Below are positions 4,926 to 20,229 of a stretch of DNA of 64,000 bases, piece after piece; position 1 is the stretch's first letter; each line of letters opens with the position of its first letter. The translations under genes and the position numbers were made by a program. The notes under the pieces were generated by a model. It was not told the origin of the DNA. It searched no databases and saw nothing but the letters and a program-made list of their open reading frames with translations. The DNA lies in assembly GCA_963802945.1 (NCBI GenBank), contig CAWDKY010000015.1, forward strand, positions 96,001 to 160,000. The letters run 5' to 3'. Source of the stretch: an uncultured delta proteobacterium (GTDB lineage Bacteria > Desulfobacterota > RBG-13-43-22).

Positions 4926-5582
4926 TCACAGCTTGCCGAGCAATCGGGTAAAAAGGCGTATAGCTGATTCATCCATCTGTTGCAGGGCTTTTTTATTCAA
5001 ACCGGCTCCTTCCACAATTCTTGCCCGCTGGTCCAAAGGGACAATATCTTCCGGTGAATGGGTGTCGGAATTTAAAACCAGGCCGGCCTTGGCCTTTTGG
5101 GCCAGACGAACAACATGCCCGTTGGTCAAGCTGTGCCCTTTCCGGGAAGTGACCTCCAGAAGAACCCCTTTTTCGGCTGCCCGGCGAACCTCGTCCAAGG
5201 TGATTAATCCCGGATGGGCCAGGATATTAACCCCGGCCTCGATGGCCGCCCGGTTGGTTCCTGGAGGCACCGGCTCGGCAATGGTTTCCCCATGAACGAC
5301 GATGAGACGGGCACCAAGTTTTCTGGCCTTGGCGACCAAACCGGCAATCGTCTCCGGTGGGACGTGGGTCAATTCAATCCCCGGGATCACTTTGATAGGC
5401 CAATGGGCATTTATTTCTCGAGCCGCAAAAACGATCCGGGGAACAATGTGATCCAGGTTGGAGACATCGGCGTGATCGGTAATGGCCCAATATTGATAGC
5501 CTTTGACTTCCGCCCTCCTGACCAGTTCCGAAGGAAGGAGGTCCCCATCACTAAGTAGAGAATGCGTATGAAGATCGATCAT
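4926..5582 (-). CDS. PHP-domain protein (histidinol-phosphate phosphatase-like)
   Basis: DLHTHS, TDH, HGET, AHP and SDTH metal-binding motifs. Confidence 0.85.
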   Translation of the reverse strand: MIDLHTHSLLSDGDLLPSELVRRAEVKGYQYWAITDHADVSNLDHIVPRIVFAAREINAHWPIKVIPGIELTHVPPETIAGLVAKARKLGARLIVVHGETIAEPVPPGTNRAAIEAGVNILAHPGLITLDEVRRAAEKGVLLEVTSRKGHSLTNGHVVRLAQKAKAGLVLNSDTHSPEDIVPLDQRARIVEGAGLNKKALQQMDESAIRLFTRLLGKL

Positions 5583-10200: not shown

Positions 10201-12432
10201 TCATGCCCCTAAAGGCAATTCTATGGTAAAAATGGTCCCTGTGGGGCCATTATTTTTAACTCGAATATGGCCGTGATGATCCGAGATAATAGAGCTGACA
10301 ATAGTCAATCCCAGGCCGGTCCCCCCCTTTTTGGTGGAAAAATAAGGGACAAAAAGTCGGTCTCTATCTCGGGGTGCAATCCCAATACCGGTGTCGATAA
10401 CTTCAATACGGGCCATTGCCAAAAACGGATCGTAATCGGTCCGGACCTTTATGGAACCGCCGTTTTCAACGGCTGCCACCGCATTATCCAACAAATTGAG
10501 CATCACCCTTTTCATCTGTTCCCGATCCAGGGGAAATTGGGGCAGGTTCGGTTCGGCCATAAAGGAAAAATCGATAGTTTTGTGGTTCTCCCGGTACAAA
10601 ATCAGGACTTCTTGAATAATGGCATTCAGGTCATTCAGGGACAGGGTTGTCGCCGGCAAGCGGCCAAAGGTAAAAAATTCATTGACCAGGCCAATCAATT
10701 CATCCACTTGATTGATGATGGTCTGAGTGCATTCATCAAAAATTTCTTTTTCTTTTCCTTCGGACAAAAGGTGGGAATATTTTTTACGCAAACGTTGGGC
10801 CGATAATTTGATGGGGGTCAACGGGTTTTTGATTTCATGGGCCAGGCGTCTGGCCACCTCTCTCCAGGCCGCCACCTTCTGGACTTTTTCGATCTCGGTT
10901 AAATCATCAAAGACCAGAACCATCCCTAAATTTCGTTTTTCCTCGTCCTGTAACAAGGAGACTTTCACTAATAAAGTCAATGTCTTATCCGAAAGCGGAA
11001 CTTGAATGGTTCGCTCGAGGGTCCCTCTTTTAATCAAGTCCAGATTGACCAGCAGGTCGTGAAGCATAACCTTTTGTTCAGGACGAAGCACATCCTGATA
11101 CCGTTTTCCAAGGACCTCCTCGGTCTTTAATCGAAGCATTTCCCTGGCCGAGTGGTTAATGGTGCTGATCCGTCCATCGGCATCTATGGAAATAACCCCG
11201 GTTCCGATATTGGCCAGGACCGTCTCCATGTATTGTTTCCGTTGATTGATTTCCTCGGTGCTCTTCCATAATTTTTGATAGGTCTGTTCGATCTCTTCCT
11301 TGCCTTTTCTTAAATCGGAAGTCATTTTATTGAAGGAACTAACCAACAAGCCGAATTCATCTTTGGCCTCCAAGTCAATGGAAAAGTCATAGTCGCCCTG
11401 GGCGATCCTCAAGGTCCCTTCGGCCAGCTTTTGGATCGGGACCGTCATCCCTTTGGCCAGGTAAAAGCCAAACCAAGTGGCGGAAAAAAGGATCAATAAG
11501 GAGACGATGGAAAGAACGATCAGATAGATGAATTTAATGGGGTTTTTCAACATCTGCATCTGCCGATACCCTTCCAGGCCAGTAGAAATGGTTTCCATTT
11601 TTTTGAGTAAGACCCTCGGAAAATAGGAAGCGACCACCACGGTAGCCAGGGTTTTCCGGGCCTGGAAATTATCCCAGACCGGAACCCCGGCAACAAAAAA
11701 ATCCCCCTCCGAAGTGGATTGTACCTCGGAAATTCCCTTGGGCTGAAAGCCTTTTTGTATAAGACTTAGGGGTGGTTCTTTAAAGAATTGCAGATAGGTC
11801 TCTGAAGTCACGACACGAACTTTTTGTTCCAGATTGGGCAAATAAAGGCCGACCCAGGCCAATCCGTATTCCTGACGTTTGTCCTGGATATTCCGTATGA
11901 TCCCTTCCTGATCGTTTTTGGTTATAAGGCCGGACTGACTCAGATCAAGACTAAGTTGTTGGGCATATATCCGGGTTCCCCGCTGGGAAGCCTGATAATA
12001 GGCCCGGCCCACGTCGACAGAGTCCTGCAGGGATTTCTCGATATGAATATTAAACGAGTAATCCATGCCCATGGCCATGAATTCATAGGCGATAAAAAAC
12101 AGGACGATGGTCGGCACCAGAGAAAGGGTGATAAATCCGATGATTAACCGGGTCCGGATCTTTGATCCCAGGATCTTTCGTCTTCTTTCGGTGACCAGCT
12201 TAAGCAGGTTTCGCACGACCAAAAAGATCAACAGGAAAAGCAAAATAATGTTGACGTTGATTAAAGCAAAAAGGATGACCCGTTGGGATAGGGAAAAGGG
12301 GAAATCGGGCCGAAGGATATTAGTTTCCCAAAAGGTCAGTCCGAGGACCACCAGGATGGTGATAATGATAATCAAGCGTTCTCTTTTTTTTCGCCGCTGT
12401 TCTTTTTGTTCTTCTGATAAAAGGGGGTTCAT
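10201..12432 (-). CDS. NtrY-like sensor histidine kinase (HAMP, PAS, HisKA, HATPase)
   Basis: AWREVARRLAHEIKNPLTPI H-box, N/G1/F/G2 boxes, TM segments; likely start ATG 12432. Confidence 0.9.
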   Translation of the reverse strand: MNPLLSEEQKEQRRKKRERLIIIITILVVLGLTFWETNILRPDFPFSLSQRVILFALINVNIILLFLLIFLVVRNLLKLVTERRRKILGSKIRTRLIIGFITLSLVPTIVLFFIAYEFMAMGMDYSFNIHIEKSLQDSVDVGRAYYQASQRGTRIYAQQLSLDLSQSGLITKNDQEGIIRNIQDKRQEYGLAWVGLYLPNLEQKVRVVTSETYLQFFKEPPLSLIQKGFQPKGISEVQSTSEGDFFVAGVPVWDNFQARKTLATVVVASYFPRVLLKKMETISTGLEGYRQMQMLKNPIKFIYLIVLSIVSLLILFSATWFGFYLAKGMTVPIQKLAEGTLRIAQGDYDFSIDLEAKDEFGLLVSSFNKMTSDLRKGKEEIEQTYQKLWKSTEEINQRKQYMETVLANIGTGVISIDADGRISTINHSAREMLRLKTEEVLGKRYQDVLRPEQKVMLHDLLVNLDLIKRGTLERTIQVPLSDKTLTLLVKVSLLQDEEKRNLGMVLVFDDLTEIEKVQKVAAWREVARRLAHEIKNPLTPIKLSAQRLRKKYSHLLSEGKEKEIFDECTQTIINQVDELIGLVNEFFTFGRLPATTLSLNDLNAIIQEVLILYRENHKTIDFSFMAEPNLPQFPLDREQMKRVMLNLLDNAVAAVENGGSIKVRTDYDPFLAMARIEVIDTGIGIAPRDRDRLFVPYFSTKKGGTGLGLTIVSSIISDHHGHIRVKNNGPTGTIFTIELPLGA

Positions 12433-12460
12433 GGACCTACCGGAGAAGGGAGTTCCTCTA

Positions 12461-13057
12461 TTAATAGATGAAATCCACTTGATACCAATCCGTTTCAAAA
12501 TCCCATAAGGAAACAAAAAACAAAAGGTAATGGAGGTATAAAGGAAGCCTGACTTTATTAAGCTCTGCCTTTATCCGTAATTGATACTGGTTGTTCCTTT
12601 CCAGGGCCTGAAGAGGGATCAGTTGAATATTACTGACATCGGCCATCATCTCCTGGGCTTTAGAAAATTCCTTGACGACAAAAATCTGATTGCCCCGTTC
12701 GCTTAATTGAATGGAATATTCATCCCTTAGAGAATCATATTTAACAGTATGATGTAATTTTAGAGAGGCGATACGTTTATTGGGCCAAATGGAACGGGGT
12801 TTATATAGTTCAACCAGGAAGGTAAAGGTGGTTGGTATCCCATTGTGGATCGCTTTATTCATTTCGGGCGTAAAACAGCCTTTGGTAAAAAAATAAACCA
12901 ATAGATGGTCCTGATTATTGGTGACAATACTATCGGCAATTTGGGCTTGTTTGCTGAAGGCCGTTATTGGGCCGGAGAGAAGCAAGGAAAGAAAAATCAG
13001 GGAAACACCGAGAATTTTCAGTAAAGAAGAACGCTTTTCCAAAATAATTCGCTTCAT
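12461..13057 (-). CDS. DUF4390 domain protein
   Basis: Signal peptide, position directly upstream of the NtrY-like kinase, WDFETDW C-terminal motif. Confidence 0.8.
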   Translation of the reverse strand: MKRIILEKRSSLLKILGVSLIFLSLLLSGPITAFSKQAQIADSIVTNNQDHLLVYFFTKGCFTPEMNKAIHNGIPTTFTFLVELYKPRSIWPNKRIASLKLHHTVKYDSLRDEYSIQLSERGNQIFVVKEFSKAQEMMADVSNIQLIPLQALERNNQYQLRIKAELNKVRLPLYLHYLLFFVSLWDFETDWYQVDFIY

Positions 13058-13306
13058 TATTCTATAGTATCAAAAAGACAAAAAAATGCAAGCCCTTTCC
13101 AATCCGGCGACCTGATGGACATTATAGGAGAAGTTGGTTTTAAAAGACCTCCCTGGAGCCCAATTACCAAGAGGCTGTTTTTCCCCTTTCCAGCGGTTGT
13201 ATTCTGAATGGTCAGGTAGTTAAAATTTTGAAGAACGGCTGCAACGATTTTCTTCAGAAACATTCGCCATGGGCGAGTTTTTTAGAAAAATACGGGAAGT
13301 GCTGGG

Positions 13307-13459
13307 CTAGACCTTGTCTATATTATTTTCTTTGTCTTGCCCTTCAACCTGGCAAGAAGAGGAAGGCATTCAACCTTGTATTCCAAGCTTCGGAAAAATC
13401 CACCGATTCAAAGCATACCACCCAGCGATAATAATCAATAACCAGATAATCGTTTTCAT
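13307..13459 (-). CDS. Putative 50-aa single-pass membrane selenoprotein (U30, U-x5-C)
   Basis: AGGAG RBS 5 nt before ATG 13459; MKTIIWLLIIIAGWYALNRWIFPKLGIQG-U-MPSSSCQVEGQDKENNIDKV; TGA at 13372-13370; SECIS-like stem downstream; absent from the ORF track. Confidence 0.7.
13335..13357 (-). promoter_or_regulatory. SECIS-like element
   Basis: TCTTGCC[AGGTTGAAG]GGCAAGA: perfect 7-bp stem, loop starting 19 nt after the TGA with G in loop position 2. Confidence 0.6.
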
Positions 13460-13478
13460 TTTCACTCCTAAAAAATAT

Positions 13479-13497
13479 TAAGAACGCACGGTTCTTA
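13479..13497 (-). promoter_or_regulatory. SECIS-like hairpin after the FmdB TGA
   Basis: TAAGAAC[CGTGC]GTTCTTA, loop 23 nt after the TGA, G at loop position 2; could also act as a weak terminator. Confidence 0.45.
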
Positions 13498-13504
13498 TTA
13501 TTAC

Positions 13505-13720
13505 TTACGATGCTCAGGAAAATCCAGAAGAAGATGGACCGCAGGTGGAAGGCAATGGAATTTCACCGGTTTGTCCTCCTGCCTGGGAAAAAGTCGAAAG
13601 CAATCGATCCACCTTTTCCCCTTTACAAAAAGGACACTCAATGCCCTCCTTTTTTGAATTCCAGACTATCTTTTTAAATATCCGGTCACATTCTAAACAA
13701 CGATATTCATAAATAGGCAT
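13505..13720 (-). CDS. FmdB-family zinc-ribbon protein, probably with C-terminal Sec (...CGPSSSGFS-U-AS)
   Basis: MPIYEYRCxxC...CPFC motif; GGAGG RBS before ATG 13720; TGA at 13516-13514 then GCA TCG TAA. The CDS itself is secure; readthrough is inferred. Confidence 0.8.
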
Positions 13721-13823
13721 ACCCGCCTCCTTCGCCTCTTTTAAGAAAATAGCTAAACTCGACGTTACAAAGATTAATTGATAAGATAACAATCAATATC
13801 CGTTTGTCAAGGATTCGGCTGTC

Positions 13824-14513
13824 TTAAGGTTCAATCCGGACTTTAGTCCCGATCGGTATTTGATCAAACAGTTCCTGCATATGGAAATTGATCAAGGCGA
13901 TACACCCTTGAGTCCAATCCACTCCTATCCCTTCCCCGTGGATCTCGATTAACCCTCCGATCCCAATGTCTTCGGAAAACTGCTTGTTTTTTAAGGCCTG
14001 TTCATAACGAATGCGATCCGAATCATTCGGATAGTCAAGAACTAAGGCCAGATAGAATTTGGTTTGACCTTGATTTTTTTTCTCAACAATCCGGTATTCC
14101 CCTTCCGGGGTTTTCATGTCTCCCTGATGGACTTTTGGCCCTTCAGGGCTTTCTCCTAGGTCAATGGGATACCATTTCAGCAATTCTCCCTCTTGGAAAA
14201 GGAACAGTTTTCGTTGTTTTTTTTTGACTACGATTTGCCATGATTCGGGGGGAAGGACTTGGACCATATCTTTCAAGGGGGACAGAACTGGGACGGGGGG
14301 AGGAATATCATCCACAATTCGGGCCGTCAAAGCCAGTTCCTCTGACGAAGGCTGGTTGGGAGTCGGACCCGGAGGCAAGGGGACGGCCGTCGCTGTTGGG
14401 GGAGGCGGGATTACCCGGCTGCAGGATAACAATCCCAGAAAGAGAAAGGTCGAGAAAAACAGAAATAAGATTCGACTAAAATAACCGTGGCTGATTGCAA
14501 GCTTGCCGTTCAT
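13824..14513 (-). CDS. L,D-transpeptidase (YkuD) family lipoprotein
   Basis: Lipobox LLSC, GDMKTPEGEY, IEIHG...WTQGCIAL catalytic His/Cys. Confidence 0.9.
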   Translation of the reverse strand: MNGKLAISHGYFSRILFLFFSTFLFLGLLSCSRVIPPPPTATAVPLPPGPTPNQPSSEELALTARIVDDIPPPVPVLSPLKDMVQVLPPESWQIVVKKKQRKLFLFQEGELLKWYPIDLGESPEGPKVHQGDMKTPEGEYRIVEKKNQGQTKFYLALVLDYPNDSDRIRYEQALKNKQFSEDIGIGGLIEIHGEGIGVDWTQGCIALINFHMQELFDQIPIGTKVRIEP

Positions 14514-14686
14514 GTTCTCCAGGGTTTTTGAGTATTTCCTTTTAAAATCTGTAACAAGGATGGGCCTATTGTCAAGAGAATAATTCCCTAAAAAATAGGC
14601 GTCTAAATTTCTCTTTAACAGTTAATAAAAGAGGTTTCCTTTTACTGCGGTTGAGAAGACAGGTTATCATGTTTTCTTTTTCCTTT

Positions 14687-15553
14687 TTATCGAATGACTT
14701 GTCCTCTCTTGGGCAACGAGCCAGATTTTTTCAATTGTTCCGGCAGGGCGAGATAGAAATGACTTTCCTTTTCCCTGCCTCGTTTTAAGCACCCCTGCCC
14801 ATAAATACAGCATTTGGCTTTCAGTTCCTTGAAGGCTAGGTCGTATTGCGCGGCAGTTAACTGTCCCGAACCTAAAATTTTTACCAGGGACTGAATACGA
14901 AAGCGATCCAAGGCAGGCGTAGTTCGAGAGAGCTGGTCTCGGTGTCCGCCCCGTTTGACCACTAAGGGCTGGTCGATCAAAAAAATGGGGAATTGGGCCG
15001 AAATCCTGAGCCAGAGGTCATAATCTTCACAGGCCGGCAGGGTCTCATCAAAACAACCCACCTGCTCGAATAATTCCCTTTGAATCATCACGGCTGAGGG
15101 ACTGACCAGACATAGCAGGAGAGAAGGGGCAAAAATATCGCCTGAATATTTTCGATGCTTTTTACGGGGATTCACCCGGCGGCCGTTGCGAATCCAGATC
15201 TCTTGGGTCTGACAAATCATGGCTTCAGGGTTTTTGGAAAAGAAGTCGATCTGTGTTTCTAATTTTTCGGGCAGCCAGAGGTCATCGTCATCCAAAAAGG
15301 CGACCCATTTTCCTTTGGCCGTTTGGATTCCTCGGTTACGGGCCGCACTAACCCCCTGATGGTCTTGGAAGCTGTAAATTAAACGACCTTTATATGGGCT
15401 GAGGACCTCCGCCGTTCCGTCAATGGACCCGTCGTCGACAACGATCAATTCAAAATCTGCAAAGGTTTGTTTAAAAATGGAGTCAACAGCCTCGAGGACA
15501 AAGAAAGACCGATTGTAGGTTGGAACAATGACACTTACCAGAGGAGTAGGCAT
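14687..15553 (-). CDS. Glycosyltransferase family 2
   Basis: VSVIVPTYN, VDDGS, FLDDDD, EDYDLWLR. Confidence 0.92.
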   Translation of the reverse strand: MPTPLVSVIVPTYNRSFFVLEAVDSIFKQTFADFELIVVDDGSIDGTAEVLSPYKGRLIYSFQDHQGVSAARNRGIQTAKGKWVAFLDDDDLWLPEKLETQIDFFSKNPEAMICQTQEIWIRNGRRVNPRKKHRKYSGDIFAPSLLLCLVSPSAVMIQRELFEQVGCFDETLPACEDYDLWLRISAQFPIFLIDQPLVVKRGGHRDQLSRTTPALDRFRIQSLVKILGSGQLTAAQYDLAFKELKAKCCIYGQGCLKRGREKESHFYLALPEQLKKSGSLPKRGQVIR

Positions 15554-15569
15554 AGAAATTTAGAAAGAG

Positions 15570-17297
15570 TCACGGTATCAATAAGGCAGTCATTCCGGCC
15601 AGAATAAATCCGGCGTCCACCATAGTCTCGAAAAAGACATTCCCGGGCAAAGCCCGATTTTTTTCATAAATAATGAGAAAACCAAATTGGTACAAAAGGC
15701 TGATCAGCAACCATAGACTCCAAAGGGGAAGAAGCCCTCCAAGAACTCCCGCCGACAAACCCGCCATAGTCGCCAGACTGATAATTTTCAGAACATGGAT
15801 GGTTTTTTCTTCTCCGATAATAATCGGCAGGGTTTCTTTGCCAACGATCATATCGCCCTGGATATCCAAAATATCAAAAAGACCGGAGCTGATATAGACA
15901 ATAGAACAAATGACGAAAAAAATCATTATCAGAGAAAGGTTCACCGGCTGCTGTTCGGCCATGGCCGGCATCAAGGTGGTTACAGCTCCCCACCCCAGGG
16001 CCACGGAAAGGGTTTTAGATGCCGGGAGGTCTTTTATTTTTTTCATTCTGGTAAAGCGTTGCCAAACAGTCGGCACGATTTGAAAACTGTAGAGGATGCC
16101 CAAGGCGCTCAAGGCGGCAAGGAATAGGAACGGAGCCCAGCCTAAGTGCAGGGCCAAGGCCAGGGAAATCAGGACGGCAGCAATTCCTGAAAAGAAGAAG
16201 GCGGATCGATGCCTTTGATAAAATTCAGAACGATCCGGATCGTTATATTCCGCTGCCCCCCGGTCAAGGAGGTGATTCAGGATGTGCATGGCATAAATAT
16301 TCAGGAAGGTTATGGTAAAATAAATCCAGTTCAAAGGGACTTGCCGCAGTCGGGAAGCGGTCAAACTCAGACACCCGGCCCCCAGGGCTATCATCAAATT
16401 GCTTTTTAATAAGAAACGTACCCAACTAAAAAGAAAGGTGCTCCAGGTGTATTCTCCCTGACCCTTAATCATCTCCAGTTTCTGGACCACCTTTCGAATC
16501 ATCCAGTTGGGAGTTGAAGCCCCGGCGGTAACACCCACGGTTTTGAATCGGCGGATTTCATTTTTATCCAATTGATCTTCCGTCTCTATATGAAAGCAGG
16601 GAGTGCCCACGGATTCGGCGATCGCCGCTAGGCGCCGGGTATTTCCGCTGTTATAACCTCCCACAACCACCAGTCCATCCACTTGCCGAGCCAGATCCCG
16701 CACTTCTTCCTGCCGTTCGTGAGTGGCATTGCAGATGGTATTAAAAATCAGACTGTTGGGAAATCGCTCTCTGATTTTTTCCACGGCCGCCTGAAAAAGG
16801 GATTCGTCCTGAGTCGTCTGGGCCACCACAATCACCTGTTTCAAATCCGGAAGGTCTTTAACCTGATCCGGATGGGTCAGGATAATTCCCCTGTCTTGAG
16901 AATAGCCCAGCAGTCCTATGACTTCCGGATGATCCCGATCACCGACAATGATCGGGGTGTATCCTTCCTGGGCATATTTCTTGATGATGGCCTGGACCTT
17001 GATCACCCTTGGACAAGTGGCGTCCACGATGGTACACCCCATCTTTTTCAGCCGATCGTGATCCTGAGGAGATATGCCGTGGGCTCGGATAACAACCGTG
17101 CCGGTCTGCCCCTCTTGAACGGGGTCCAGGATACGGATGCCTTTTTCCCCCAGCATCGATAAGACCTGAGGATTATGGATCAAGGGTCCAAAGGTGTAAA
17201 CAGGGTCGGGATAATGGTAATTGGCCTCCAGGGCCATTTCCATAGCCCGGCGGACGCCCATACAAAATCCGGCCTTTTTTGCCAGACGGACTTTCAT
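15570..17297 (-). CDS. ispH: 4-hydroxy-3-methylbut-2-enyl diphosphate reductase fused to a UbiA-type prenyltransferase domain
   Basis: AGFCMGV, DATCP, HPEV, TICNAT, TAGASTP; C-terminal multi-TM domain with NHLLD and FDILDIQGD Asp-rich motifs. Confidence 0.92.
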   Translation of the reverse strand: MKVRLAKKAGFCMGVRRAMEMALEANYHYPDPVYTFGPLIHNPQVLSMLGEKGIRILDPVQEGQTGTVVIRAHGISPQDHDRLKKMGCTIVDATCPRVIKVQAIIKKYAQEGYTPIIVGDRDHPEVIGLLGYSQDRGIILTHPDQVKDLPDLKQVIVVAQTTQDESLFQAAVEKIRERFPNSLIFNTICNATHERQEEVRDLARQVDGLVVVGGYNSGNTRRLAAIAESVGTPCFHIETEDQLDKNEIRRFKTVGVTAGASTPNWMIRKVVQKLEMIKGQGEYTWSTFLFSWVRFLLKSNLMIALGAGCLSLTASRLRQVPLNWIYFTITFLNIYAMHILNHLLDRGAAEYNDPDRSEFYQRHRSAFFFSGIAAVLISLALALHLGWAPFLFLAALSALGILYSFQIVPTVWQRFTRMKKIKDLPASKTLSVALGWGAVTTLMPAMAEQQPVNLSLIMIFFVICSIVYISSGLFDILDIQGDMIVGKETLPIIIGEEKTIHVLKIISLATMAGLSAGVLGGLLPLWSLWLLISLLYQFGFLIIYEKNRALPGNVFFETMVDAGFILAGMTALLIP

Positions 17298-17306
17298 AAA
17301 TTTAGT

Positions 17307-18278
17307 TTACTCTAATGAACCCAGGGAATCAAAATATTCTTCAAAAAGGATCTTTAATCTTTCTTTGCTTTTGGCCAAGGCCACGTTTTTCCTGAATTCT
17401 CCTGATGCCGGAAGTCCCCTGGTCAGGACAAACAAGGTCCTCCGCAAGGCTTTGATTTGAGCCGGGCCCTGATAATTTTCCTCAATCCATTCCCAGTAGG
17501 AAAAAAGCCATTCCCGCCTTTTCTCCGTATCAGGATGGGTCGGGGTTTCTCCGGCCTCCACTTCCCTTATTTGTTTAAATATCCAAGGAGTCCTCAAGGC
17601 TTGACGGCCGATCATGATCCCATCACACTGGGTTTGCCTTTTATGCTGCAGGGCTAGCTCCGGAGAGGTGATATCTCCACTTCCAATGACAGGGATACGG
17701 ACCCCTGCTTTGAGTTCCGTTATCACCGACCAGTCCGCTTGACCGGAAAAACCCTGGATTGCATAACGGGGGTGGATAATCAGGGCATCGACTCCGGAAT
17801 CCTCGGCGACCTGGGCCAATGTCCGGTAGGTTCGATCTCCTTCTTGCCATCCGGAGCGAATCTTGATCGTCAGGGGAAGATGAGTTGCCTTCCGAACGGC
17901 TTTTATCAGCGTTTCAGCTTGGTGCAGATCCTTAAGTAAAGCCGCTCCTGATCCTGATTTGGAGACCTTTTTTACTGAGCAGCCCATGTTGATATCGATA
18001 ATGTCCGCCCCTGCCTCCCCGGACAGAACAGCGGCCCGGGCCATCACTTCCGGGTTGAAACCGAATAACTGAACCGATAAGGGATGGTCCTCGGGAACGG
18101 TTTTCAGGATCGACCAAGTCAAGGGAATCTTTCGGACCAGTCCTTCGGCGCTGACCATTTCGGTGCAGGCCAGCTCGCAGCCCATTCTTCGGACCAACAA
18201 ACGGAAGGGCAAGTCCGTGTATCCGGCCATGGGGGCCATGATGTAAGGAAACGATATGGTTTGGGATCCTAATTTCAT
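17307..18278 (-). CDS. dusB: tRNA dihydrouridine synthase (DusB-like)
   Basis: APMAG, TEMVS, DINMGC, KIRSGW, GIMIGR. Confidence 0.88.
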   Translation of the reverse strand: MKLGSQTISFPYIMAPMAGYTDLPFRLLVRRMGCELACTEMVSAEGLVRKIPLTWSILKTVPEDHPLSVQLFGFNPEVMARAAVLSGEAGADIIDINMGCSVKKVSKSGSGAALLKDLHQAETLIKAVRKATHLPLTIKIRSGWQEGDRTYRTLAQVAEDSGVDALIIHPRYAIQGFSGQADWSVITELKAGVRIPVIGSGDITSPELALQHKRQTQCDGIMIGRQALRTPWIFKQIREVEAGETPTHPDTEKRREWLFSYWEWIEENYQGPAQIKALRRTLFVLTRGLPASGEFRKNVALAKSKERLKILFEEYFDSLGSLE

Positions 18279-18292
18279 ATGAGGTTCATCTT

Positions 18293-18427
18293 TGATGATT
18301 TCTTAAAAAGCCACCGAAAGCTGATTTTCGTCATTCCGGCGAAAGCCGGAATCCAGGAACCTCAACCGTTTAGAAAATCCCTGGACCCCGGTTTTCACCG
18401 GGGTGACGGCTTTTTGCGAATCCATCA
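18293..18427. mobile_element. MITE-like element enclosing a REP-like double hairpin
   Basis: 20-bp terminal inverted repeats (16/20 match by eye) around CGTCATTCCGGCGAAAGCCGGAATCCAG...CTGGACCCCGGTTTTCACCGGGGTGACG. Confidence 0.65.
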
Positions 18428-18512
18428 TCTTTTCATCTTTTTTAATGGACTTTTTTGATTACCTTTAAAGTATATACCACACTAGGCCATTCCTGGATAA
18501 AAAAACCGCTGC

Positions 18513-18541
18513 TTGACTAATTCAATTGAATATTTTATAAA
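18513..18541 (+). promoter_or_regulatory. Sigma70-like promoter of selC
   Basis: TTGACT-N17-TATAAA ending 8 nt before the tRNA 5' end. Confidence 0.65.
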
Positions 18542-18549
18542 AAATTAAC

Positions 18550-18647
18550 GGAAGTGGAAAGCTCACTGGTGGGGCTCCCGGACTTCAAATCCGGTGTGCC
18601 GTCTGAAGAGGGCGGCAGGTGGGTTCGATTCCCATGCACTTCCGCCA
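18550..18647 (+). tRNA. selC: tRNA-Sec (anticodon UCA)
   Basis: GGAAGTG/CACTTCC acceptor, CCGGA-CTTCAAA-TCCGG anticodon arm, long variable arm, TTCGATT T-loop, encoded GCCA end; 98 nt. Confidence 0.96.
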
Positions 18648-18737
18648 ACTTTTATCTGGTTGGACTTTCTACTTTTTTTGACTTTCACGGTTTCCATCAA
18701 ATTCTGGTCTCTATCCTAACAACTATCCATTTACCCC

Positions 18738-18949
18738 AAATTGCAGGATGAATTGCTGAATCGGGAGATTTTTGAGACCTTATTTGAAGCCAAAGTACTT
18801 GTTGAGCGGTGGAAGGTAGAATATAATACACTCAGGCCACATAGTTCATTGAATTACCAGCCTCCTGCTCCAGAGGCTGTTAAGCCAGAGTGGTTAGAAA
18901 ATGCGGTTGTTCTCTCTTAAAAACTGGTACAACTTAGAGGGGCAGGTCA
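18738..18949 (+). mobile_element. IS3-family transposase remnant (OrfB C-terminus plus right end)
   Basis: KLQDELLNREIFETLFEAKVLVERWKVEYNTLRPHSSLNYQPPAPEA; terminal ...CTGGTACAAC...GGGGCAGGTCA. Confidence 0.85.
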
Positions 18950-19032
18950 CTGGATGCTTGATTCTTGATACTGGATAGTCGATGATTCTTTTTATCGGCT
19001 CGATGCTTAAGGTTTTTATCCAGCATCCAGCT
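18950..19032. repeat. Inverted array of degenerate heptamers (CTGGATG-like)
   Basis: ctggatg cttgatt cttgata ctggat ... atccagc atccagc. Confidence 0.65.
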
Positions 19033-19047
19033 TCCATTATCAGTCCT

Positions 19048-20229
19048 CTATTTTTTTCCTCGTATCCTGTCCATAGTGCCCCGAGGGACCCATAACCCTT
19101 CATGGGGACAATGTTCCAGACAACAATAACACTCAATGCACAGCTCCTGATCAAGGGTCAACAGGTGGTCGGAGAACGTCAGGGCTTGGGCCGGACAAGC
19201 CTTGACGCAGAGGCCGCATTCTTGACACTGTTCCGGGCGCCAGCGAGGTTTGGCTTCGTACAACCAGTCATAGGCCCGGCCGATCAACCAAGTTGGTATA
19301 ACCCTCTCAGCCCATTCACGTGATCTGGTAAAAGAATGTTTAAAACCAGGGACCGGAAGTTCAGACCAGTCAGCCCCCCGAAGTTCGATACGAGACGGGT
19401 CGGCGATTCCTAAGCCAGCTTTGGCAGCTCGAACAATGGTAAGGACTCTGGCCGGATTAAATCCCATGATGGAAGCAGCAGTAACATCTAAAGCCACCGG
19501 GTCAGTCGAAGCCAGAAGCCAGCCTGTTTCCCGGGCCTGACCGTGGGTTGGCCCTTGGCCTTCCATGGCGATTATCCCATCCATAAGATTTAAGGCCAGG
19601 GGAACCTTGATCTTTATCCCGCTGAAAATATCAACCAAGGCCTGGGACATGGCCGGGCCACTGAAGGCAATCCTATGAACGGCTCGTTTGAGCGAACCGG
19701 GCAGTAAGCCCAAACAATTTTTAATCGCCCCGGTGATCCCGGTCAGGATATGCGTTTTCATCTTGGGCAGATTGACAATGGCATCAACCTGCTCCAAAAG
19801 GTCCGTGGCCATGAATTTAGGCAATATCTGGCCTTCCGGGCTTTGGAGTTCGATAAATCGGAGTTCCTCAAGATTGACTAACTCAGCCTTAAGGCAAATT
19901 GCCGCCTGATCCAGTCCCATGAGGGTATAGGCCCGTTTGGTCATGCCGTAAGATCCCATTCCACAGGAATCGGCGATAACTAGGTTGGTTTGATGACGGT
20001 TACGCAGGTAATGTCCGACTGCCTCAATCACCTCAACCCGGGTATTGACCGGCTGATCAGGACCATGGTCGGCCGATAGGCAATTGGGTTTAAGCAGGAC
20101 CCGGGCGCCGTTGGACAAAGGGAGGGGTTCCAGGGCGGATAAAATTTTTTCCACCGCCCTGGTCAGATGGGTTGGTTGATAATCCGGACAGCGGCAGACA
20201 CTGACCCGGCTGGAATATTCAGTCATCAA
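19048..20229 (-). CDS. DUF362 domain protein with C-terminal 4Fe-4S dicluster
   Basis: VLLKPN, NLPKMKTH, TGAIKN, DGIIAMEGQGP, DPVALD; CQECGLCVKACP and CIECYCCLEHCP. Confidence 0.9.
   Translation of the reverse strand: MMTEYSSRVSVCRCPDYQPTHLTRAVEKILSALEPLPLSNGARVLLKPNCLSADHGPDQPVNTRVEVIEAVGHYLRNRHQTNLVIADSCGMGSYGMTKRAYTLMGLDQAAICLKAELVNLEELRFIELQSPEGQILPKFMATDLLEQVDAIVNLPKMKTHILTGITGAIKNCLGLLPGSLKRAVHRIAFSGPAMSQALVDIFSGIKIKVPLALNLMDGIIAMEGQGPTHGQARETGWLLASTDPVALDVTAASIMGFNPARVLTIVRAAKAGLGIADPSRIELRGADWSELPVPGFKHSFTRSREWAERVIPTWLIGRAYDWLYEAKPRWRPEQCQECGLCVKACPAQALTFSDHLLTLDQELCIECYCCLEHCPHEGLWVPRGTMDRIRGKK

Follow-up and report, generated by a model that had tools for sequence, protein, structure and literature searches.

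A predicted family of small, single-pass membrane selenoproteins overlooked by gene annotation in Desulfobacterota-like bacteria and several other phyla

At a probability of about 0.8, the best overall explanation is that a single-pass membrane selenoprotein of 50 residues is encoded by a real gene at positions 13459-13307 (minus strand) of the window analyzed here, the 64,000-nucleotide (nt) stretch formed by positions 96,001 to 160,000 of contig CAWDKY010000015.1 from an uncultured delta proteobacterium (assembly GCA_963802945.1). Taken as a point by itself, the assignment of the in-frame TGA at 13372-13370 as a selenocysteine (Sec, U) codon is very likely. Sequence comparisons place the predicted protein in a large, unnamed family with the core W-x-L-P-[KR]-x-G-[IV]-x-T-[U/C]-M-S-x-x-C, in which some members appear to carry Sec and others cysteine (Cys), and which appears to extend over Desulfobacterota-like bacteria, Acidobacteriota, Planctomycetota, Myxococcota and several other phyla. 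This is a new family of a well-known kind of system; it is widespread, and annotation systematically overlooks it.

Translated with TGA as U, the gene (13307..13459, minus strand) comprises 50 codons and a TAG stop, a layout that it shares with its homologues. An ATG at 13459-13457 opens a run of 29 codons (MKTIIWLLIIIAGWYALNRWIFPKLGIQG), which is followed by the TGA as codon 30, 20 sense codons (MPSSSCQVEGQDKENNIDKV) and the TAG at 13309-13307, and a Shine-Dalgarno sequence, AGGAG, was read directly at 13465..13469 with a 5-nt spacer to the ATG. Residues 2-24 (13388..13456) would form a single hydrophobic helix serving as a membrane anchor, as indicated by an AlphaFold2 model and the charge distribution. 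The predicted Sec codon (U30, 13370..13372) occupies an invariant alignment column and is aligned with Cys in relatives, and its putative partner in a Sec/Cys pair is Cys36 (TGC, 13352..13354), whose column is at least 90% conserved in two family alignments. That TGC lies within the 5' arm of a hairpin (13335..13357) resembling a selenocysteine insertion sequence (SECIS), with a stem of 7 base pairs (bp) and a 9-nt loop (AGGUUGAAG), which starts 12 nt past the TGA. A preliminary description, made from the letters of the window, had proposed the same succession of AGGAG, ATG, in-frame TGA and TAG, and re-reading of the minus strand found it exact, as was the U-x5-C spacing given there for the window gene (Cys at U+6).

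Homologues were sought by a six-frame search of 61 related genomes with the 50-residue product as the query and a threshold of E <= 1e-3. The search returned 28 matches in 27 of the 61 genomes, each with exactly one in-frame TGA, and no Cys form was found among these genomes; the first stop-free match (E = 0.025) was a false one inside a 495-residue open reading frame (ORF). In the taxonomic family of the window genome, a TGA-form match at this threshold was present in 17 of 21 genomes, namely the window's own genome (G000) and 16 of its 20 relatives. For all 29 loci with the motif P-[KR]-x-G-x-x-x-U an ATG was located 28-30 codons upstream, and when these loci were aligned M1, P23, G26 and U30 were invariant and C36 was conserved at 90% or more. 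The conserved surroundings predicted in the preliminary description are retained in the homologues as W-x-[LF]-P-[KR]-x-G-[IV]-x-x-[U/C], and TAA or TAG at the Sec column, which it had named as an outcome speaking against Sec, was seen in none of the matches at E <= 1e-3 in the 61 related genomes.

Two degenerate DNA scans were run over one genome per species, one for TGA stretches and one for TGY stretches, with patterns that fix the core W-x-L-P-x-x-G-[IV]-x-x-TGA/TGY-ATG. At least 120 TGA stretches and 84 TGY stretches were found and all of them translate to the family layout, which includes features lying outside the fixed core: the hydrophobic N-terminus, the upstream ATG (25-36 codons upstream in 113 of the 120 TGA stretches listed), the downstream Cys and the open frame. 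Judged by their record titles, the TGA forms derive from Deltaproteobacteria-type metagenome-assembled genomes (MAGs; Syntrophobacteraceae, Smithella, Desulfomonile and others), Myxococcota, Acidobacteriota, Planctomycetota including Kuenenia, Melainabacteria-like 'Cyanobacteria', Verrucomicrobia, Fibrobacteraceae, spirochaetes, KSB1 and Rokubacteria. The Cys forms, by the same titles, are chiefly from Planctomycetota, with some from Myxococcota and Acidobacteriota.

The coding character of the sequence past the TGA bears on an alternative in which the TGA is a plain stop, the product is a 29-residue membrane peptide, and the hairpin acts as a terminator or attenuator or, otherwise, the ATG immediately after the TGA, which is present in the window gene and most relatives, opens a coupled mini-ORF. 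Family counts for the TGA form refer from here on to 149 forms listed, and more exist. In all 149, the frame is open for at least 13 codons past the TGA (median 25), whereas 55 and 49 of them have a stop within the first 10 codons of the +1 and +2 frames, respectively, which argues against a plain stop. Pairwise differences within the genus fell on codon positions 1:2:3 in the proportion 401:69:802 before the TGA and 161:31:226 over the 11 codons after it, a pattern by which the first 11 codons past the TGA show apparent coding-type constraint. Both the open frame and the conservation thus continue downstream of the TGA, as the preliminary description had anticipated. The first Cys after Sec stands at U+5 in 109 of the forms, at U+6 in 24, at U+7 in two and at U+10 in one; 13 of the 149 have no Cys within 10 residues of Sec and several of these end in G-G-C or N-G-C. 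Among the forms without a Cys at U+5/6 are L031, L090 and L106 (also L038, L122 and L146), mostly of Myxococcota type, which read U-M-A-P-P-R-R-S and onward; in three of these Cys-lacking forms the stop is directly preceded by G-G-C or N-G-C, which would fit a shift of the partner Cys to the end of the flexible tail.

Protein databases also contain the family. A profile of 29 sequences was compared with 1.84 billion representative proteins and matched 1218 at E <= 1e-3, 32 of them at E <= 1e-10. Cys occupies the Sec column in 87 of the best 150 relatives, with the typical core L-P-x-x-G-I-P-T-C-M-S-G-A-C, and the 84 genomic Cys forms, from 84 species, carry T-C-M-S-G-x-C; UGA is thus aligned with a Cys column in both collections. 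These Cys forms are continuous single ORFs in which the same Met follows the Cys, a point against a mini-ORF starting after a plain stop. Another 29 of the best 150 relatives stop exactly ahead of the Sec column, so public gene calls that end there can be cited in favor of a stop; they equally bear out the statement in the preliminary description that gene callers would miss the gene. W stands at the column in 26 relatives and G in one, which we take to be gene-caller translations of TGA under other codes, and the remaining residues are R in four and E, L and K in one each, the K case probably being a false match to a repetitive 592-residue protein. The four relatives with Arg are P0045, P0061, P0067 and P0150, the last of which is near the TGA form L077. 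As no standard code known to us reads TGA as Arg, these variants may be real CGA or AGA codons, one base from TGA. Wherever the source gives a name, the database relatives are 'hypothetical protein'. A word-index protein search with the 50-residue query gave no match, and when the ESM Atlas was searched with a naturally occurring Cys form, the one cluster obtained was of a 'hypothetical protein', at 0.84, which is under the useful range.

Comparison across the family was likewise informative for the hairpin. In the window gene, TCTTGCC (13357-13351) pairs with GGCAAGA (13341-13335) over 7 bp without a mismatch, around the loop AGGTTGAAG (13350-13342); the stem is as perfect as the preliminary description held it to be and the gap from TGA to loop is the 19 nt that it claimed. 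For the family as a whole, we counted perfect stems that have 6 bp or more and begin 9-24 nt past the T of the TGA, in 148 TGA forms and 84 Cys forms. Such a positioned hairpin was present in 88% of the 148 TGA forms listed, whereas 29% were expected from synonymous-codon resampling (maximum 40% in 100 runs) and 17% from shuffling. The Cys forms showed no enrichment, with 32% observed versus 26% expected (maximum 38%). Stem starts in the TGA forms listed have a median of 17 and an interquartile range of 15-19 (9-18 in the Cys forms), 131 of 148 TGA forms listed, versus 44 of 84 Cys forms, have a G as the first or second loop base, and the 130 hairpins of the TGA forms listed carry 77 distinct arm sequences. 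Because the hairpin is enriched beyond what the protein sequence itself would produce after TGA, and not after Cys codons, we conclude that selection acts on the RNA structure, and does so at TGA codons alone. This distribution does not fit a terminator behind a plain stop, and neither do the SECIS-type distance of the hairpin, its lack of a U tract and its position inside conserved coding sequence.

A second TGA copy in the window genome adds to this picture. It lies at G000:C32:109365-109508 (L235 ~5366-5509, minus strand), and is 81% identical over the match. An FmdB zinc-ribbon gene (L235 5551-5775) directly precedes it, and transposase-like and HNH-like ORFs lie around it. The stem of this copy, TCCTGCC/GGCAGGA, differs from that of the window gene by a compensatory T>C / A>G change, and in position, loop G and compensatory change the stem-loop of the family is consistent with a SECIS element. 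This copy may come from another strain, as the contamination of the bin is 6.72%.

Supporting the assignment of the TGA to Sec, the window genome has the full machinery for its insertion. SelA (627 bits), SelD, SelB and tRNA-Sec are all present, the SelB match (266 bits) being over the cut-off and covering model positions 1-210 only. The gene for tRNA-Sec (selC, anticodon TCA) is in the window itself at 18550-18647 on the plus strand, 5.2 kilobases (kb) from the selenoprotein gene; it was identified by ARAGORN and by Rfam (RF01852, 74.3 bits), which confirms the selC that the preliminary description had placed about 5 kb away. SelD (G000:C17:415477-416388) has an in-frame TGA and scores 392 bits to TIGR00476, so that the selenophosphate synthetase of this genome is, by its sequence, itself a predicted selenoprotein. 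SelB is over the cut-off in 55 of the 61 relatives; SelA is present in G010 and G035, the two TGA-form genomes among the six with SelB below the cut-off, and G047, which is 100% complete, is without SelA, SelB and a family member. Outside the phylum, we sampled 50 of the at least 120 TGA loci and 50 of the 84 Cys loci, and SelA was over the cut-off in 44 of the 50 TGA-form genomes versus 20 of the 50 Cys-form genomes, a tracking of SelA by TGA that a plain stop does not account for. One of three further TGA-form genomes checked was SelA-positive.

Several observations weigh against reading the gene in this manner. When 81 nt were folded as a single sequence, the result was not beyond chance (z = -0.43 versus shuffles), and the case for the hairpin therefore needed the comparison across the family. 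An Rfam search of window positions 12000-20000 (E <= 10) gave the tRNA-Sec and chance-level matches, with none over the hairpin. The tail beyond Cys36 is poorly conserved in the family alignment and modelled as disordered. The likeness of L031-L234 is partly by construction, as the scan patterns fix the core, and related genomes are not independent samples. Eight TGA-form genomes (6 of the 50 and 2 of the 3) are without SelA over the cut-off; six of these have SelB over the cut-off and/or a tRNA-Sec of at least 66 bits. In G080, SelA is found only as fragments with stops. The clearest case is G161, the genome of L110, which is without SelA and SelB and has a marginal tRNA-Sec of 48.7 bits, in which it resembles G130 and G156, the Sec-less controls. 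Its family member (L110:549-680) shares 91% DNA identity with L215:1493-1624 (both Isosphaeraceae-type), with TGA versus TGC at the Sec/Cys column; the L215 genome is likewise without SelA and SelB (tRNA-Sec model 46.0 bits), and the L110 hairpin is weak. The TGA of L110 most plausibly reflects a nonsense change or an error within a lineage of Cys forms, missing machinery being another possibility, and L110 is the one clear exception. The expectation in the preliminary description that TGA forms occur only in Sec-competent genomes was borne out among the 53 genomes examined, apart from this clear exception and one doubtful case.

The L110 locus, as a TGA form in a genome without detectable Sec machinery, also speaks for a plain stop, but in view of the open frames, the Cys forms, the hairpins and the association with SelA described above, we consider a plain stop improbable for the window gene. 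The L110/L215 pair is equally a demonstration of the state supposed by a further alternative, in which the window copy would be a Cys-form gene that is decaying into a pseudogene or has been misassembled. TGC and TGA are one base change apart, and the contamination of the bin could be invoked as well; but the TGA form recurs in the 17 genomes of the taxonomic family with no Cys form in the 61 genomes, the second TGA copy has its compensatory stem change, and the window gene retains a strong hairpin, a ribosome-binding site and its ATG, making decay or error most improbable, and more so than a plain stop.

No named family was found for the protein, in agreement with the preliminary description, which had been unable to assign it to a named selenoprotein family. 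The Sec form had no Pfam match at E <= 1 and its sole match in NCBIfam (release 20.0), to P2_Rz1 at E = 0.057, was below the cut-off; ten Cys, W or fusion forms had no match in Pfam or NCBIfam except to a fused thioredoxin. A 2026 inventory (PMC13188914, Table 1) gives model identifiers and Sec motifs for 119 prokaryotic selenoprotein families, and no entry among them combines a single helix, a length of about 50 residues and U-x4/5-C; matching to family models covered the scannable identifiers, and families with only cd or PTHR identifiers were compared by their Table 1 entry. The passages available from the deep-Sep (PMC12013277), BSepDB (PMC13326102) and Olavius symbiont (PMC1976440) papers describe no such protein and contain no mention of 'transmembrane', and those from the Haft and Gwadz preprint (10.1101/2022.07.06.499078) describe none either and have one unrelated 'transmembrane' mention. 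A full-text literature search, with supplementary tables outside its scope, found no paper on the family.

The decoding system itself is of a familiar type. Bacterial selenoprotein genes carry an in-frame SECIS right after the Sec-UGA, E. coli fdhF being the type case, and the bSECISearch consensus for it is described in PMC12013277 and PMC13188914. The window family resembles such genes in its single in-frame UGA, its Cys homologues, the presence of SelA, SelB, SelD and tRNA-Sec in the genomes, the start of the hairpin about 12-16 nt past the UGA and the G at the loop start. It is unlike them in that the product is of only about 50 residues, membrane-anchored, without a fold domain and in no listed family, and in that, the product being so small, the SECIS encodes a large share of its soluble part. 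SelB and Sec-tRNA(Sec) would accordingly read the UGA at 13372-13370 as Sec, with recoding directed by the hairpin at 13357-13335, which would lie within the coding frame like other bacterial SECIS elements.

In the eukaryotic proteins SELENOK and SELENOS, one transmembrane helix follows a short N-terminus and leads into a disordered cytosolic tail that has Sec near the C-terminus. They are the nearest to the window family in architecture, and in architecture only, so the likeness is one of analogy and not kinship. The window family has no sequence relation to them, as it gave no Pfam match. Its Sec differs in position, being residue 30 of 50 and just past the helix with a Cys 5-6 residues on, and its hairpin is of the bacterial in-frame kind rather than a SECIS in the 3' untranslated region.

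AlphaFold2, run with the family alignment, predicts one helix at residues 2-24, with a predicted local distance difference test (pLDDT) score of 87-89 over the first 20 residues; no structure was modelled after residue 24 and the mean pLDDT was 69.8. A profile search of the PDB gave no meaningful match, the best being to helices of G protein-coupled receptors at E = 0.15. Among 216 family members, the helix is preceded by a short stretch of net acidic character, with a mean K+R of 0.32 in Sec forms and 0.47 in Cys forms and D+E of 0.82 and 0.96, respectively, and the 11 residues from the helix to Sec have K+R of 1.8 in Sec forms and 1.08 in Cys forms and D+E of ~0.0. The positive-inside rule is established knowledge, and because of its application to this charge distribution we place the N-terminus probably outside and the Sec/Cys pair probably at the cytoplasmic face of the membrane; that one rule is the whole basis of the topology, which has to be counted against this part of the model. 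The product would then consist of the N-terminal helix, a conserved turn L/F-P-K-L-G-I-x-x, Sec30, Cys36 and a disordered charged tail, with the short acidic N-terminus facing outward.

The function of the pair was approached through gene fusions and neighbors. A thioredoxin domain is fused C-terminally in one Sec form (L124) and in three Cys forms (L196, L216 and P0138), and DUF302 is fused in the Cys forms L189 and L226. A census of neighbors within a radius of about 3 kb, with Pfam identities taken from representatives, covered the 149 Sec loci listed and 84 Cys loci. Thioredoxin was a neighbor in 16 Sec and 28 Cys loci, on the same strand in 42 of the 44. The corresponding numbers of Sec and Cys loci were 7 and 31 for a zf-HC2 anti-sigma factor, 22 and 18 for ArsR, 7 and 18 for rhodanese, 6 and 22 for a YgaP-type membrane domain, 10 and 7 for DUF302, 3 and 12 for TauE, and 4 and 6 for an SQR-like flavoprotein. 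At least one of these eight neighbor types occurred at 51 of 149 Sec loci and 68 of 84 Cys loci. Thioredoxin is a rare gene per genome, and we take fusion as a strong hint. Our leading hypothesis is that the Sec/Cys pair works at the inner face of the membrane, in redox or sulfur chemistry linked to thioredoxin. The pair may alternate between a selenol/thiol and a selenenyl-sulfide state, with thioredoxin as the reductant that restores the former, and the protein could serve as a membrane-tethered relay in the handling of thiol, sulfane-sulfur or peroxide stress. Against such a function, it must be said that the neighbor counts are without a background control and the loci phylogenetically clumped, that the window is without thiol or sulfur neighbor genes, and that some loci show CusB/RND efflux genes instead.

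Efflux genes of this type bring in the main functional rival to the redox relay, which keeps the same gene and Sec decoding and has the Sec/Cys pair as a ligand for soft metals or metalloids (e.g. Cu(I), Hg(II), As or Se species) in a chaperone or sensor at the membrane face. HlyD/CusB-type adaptors are neighbors at 9 of the 149 Sec loci listed and 13 of the 84 Cys loci, and the gene order at L179 includes a CusB-like adaptor and an RND pump. The ArsR family, whose counts are given above, includes many metal sensors, and in MerT a Cys pair on the cytoplasmic face passes on Hg. A MerT-type selenoprotein is included in the inventory (PMC13188914). However, MerT (PF02411) was not matched at E <= 1 by Sec or Cys forms, nor was there a match to HMA or other metal-binding Pfam families; thioredoxin fusions and same-strand thioredoxin neighbors are more frequent; the rhodanese, TauE, DUF302 and SQR-like neighbors indicate sulfur and not metals; and with one Sec and one Cys per chain, good chelation would require dimerisation. 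Metal binding is therefore possible but on balance unlikely.

Within the redox hypothesis, a more specific proposal is tentative as a whole and is to be taken as a speculation: the protein could be a minimal membrane-tethered catalytic selenol, with its Sec/Cys pair carried on one helix at the inner lipid-water interface and recycled by thioredoxin, that either reduces membrane-proximal oxidants (lipid hydroperoxides, polysulfides or quinone-derived species) or carries persulfide or perselenide. If this were true, it would be a 50-residue bacterial functional counterpart of GPx4 or of SELENOK/S-type selenoproteins, occurring in at least eight phyla and invisible to annotation.

A relation to the YgaP-like DUF2892 family (PF11127) was also considered. 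The two are alike in being small membrane modules in which a conserved Cys lies close to a G-x-T-C-type motif, they have thioredoxin, rhodanese and ArsR contexts in common, and DUF2892 genes are frequent neighbors of the family, but DUF2892 has two helices and the window family one. The relation was rejected, there being no Pfam match at E <= 1 and an hhalign probability of 7.5%. At the L179 locus (L179:1712-7344, a Thermoguttaceae MAG), the genes are, in order, a zf-HC2 anti-sigma factor, the small Cys protein, a 77-residue DUF2892 protein, the CusB/HlyD-type adaptor and the RND pump, a context that is metal-efflux-like and unlike the thioredoxin contexts.

Selenoproteomes serve to infer the selenium dependence and the redox biology of anaerobes. 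The family has at least 149 TGA-form loci, which gene callers cut to 29 residues or skip, and is absent from model libraries and from the 2026 inventory; because it is truncated, skipped and uncatalogued, selenoproteome counts are systematically short. With one helix and a Sec/Cys pair, it would be the smallest and simplest kind of selenoprotein. A hidden Markov model of the family would allow annotation pipelines to call these genes. Since Cys-form orthologues are found in cultivable planctomycetes, e.g. Lacipirellula limnantheis I41 (L175), the chemistry and the thioredoxin link are directly testable.

In the window, the gene immediately upstream, 54 nt from the selenoprotein gene, encodes an FmdB-family zinc ribbon (13514..13720, minus strand, starting at the methionine of MPIYEYRC; TIGR02605, 6.1e-14; PF09723, 1.8e-12), and the two genes are probably co-transcribed. 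FmdB is the probable upstream operon partner in the window and throughout the taxonomic family of the window genome, and it stands again beside the second copy; of the 27 related loci scored, 16 (L001-L016) have it ahead of the small gene. A general link to FmdB was rejected, as elsewhere it was found at just 3 of 110 and 0 of 79 loci. FmdB (TIGR02605) is itself listed with a UxxU selenoprotein form (PMC13188914, Table 1); the FmdB of the window is a gene separate from the small one and has Cys, not Sec. A promoter-like site, TTGACA-16-TATCTT with a TG (13783..13810, minus strand), lies 5' of the FmdB gene as a consensus match only, and we regard it as weak because the promoter scan was at chance level, with five sites found versus 4.2 expected in shuffles; the terminator scan was likewise at chance level. 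Other neighbors in the window encode a YkuD transpeptidase, a DUF4390 protein, a PAS/HAMP sensor kinase and a family-2 glycosyltransferase. Directly 3' of the selenoprotein gene there is a 68-residue ORF (13057-13263, minus strand) without a match in Pfam or NCBIfam. Further upstream, a 575-residue ORF (15570-17297, minus strand) combines IspH/LytB (PF02401, 2.4e-94) with a UbiA-type prenyltransferase membrane domain (PF01040, 3.2e-13), a fusion that would link the final step of isoprenoid-precursor synthesis with a prenyl-transfer enzyme.

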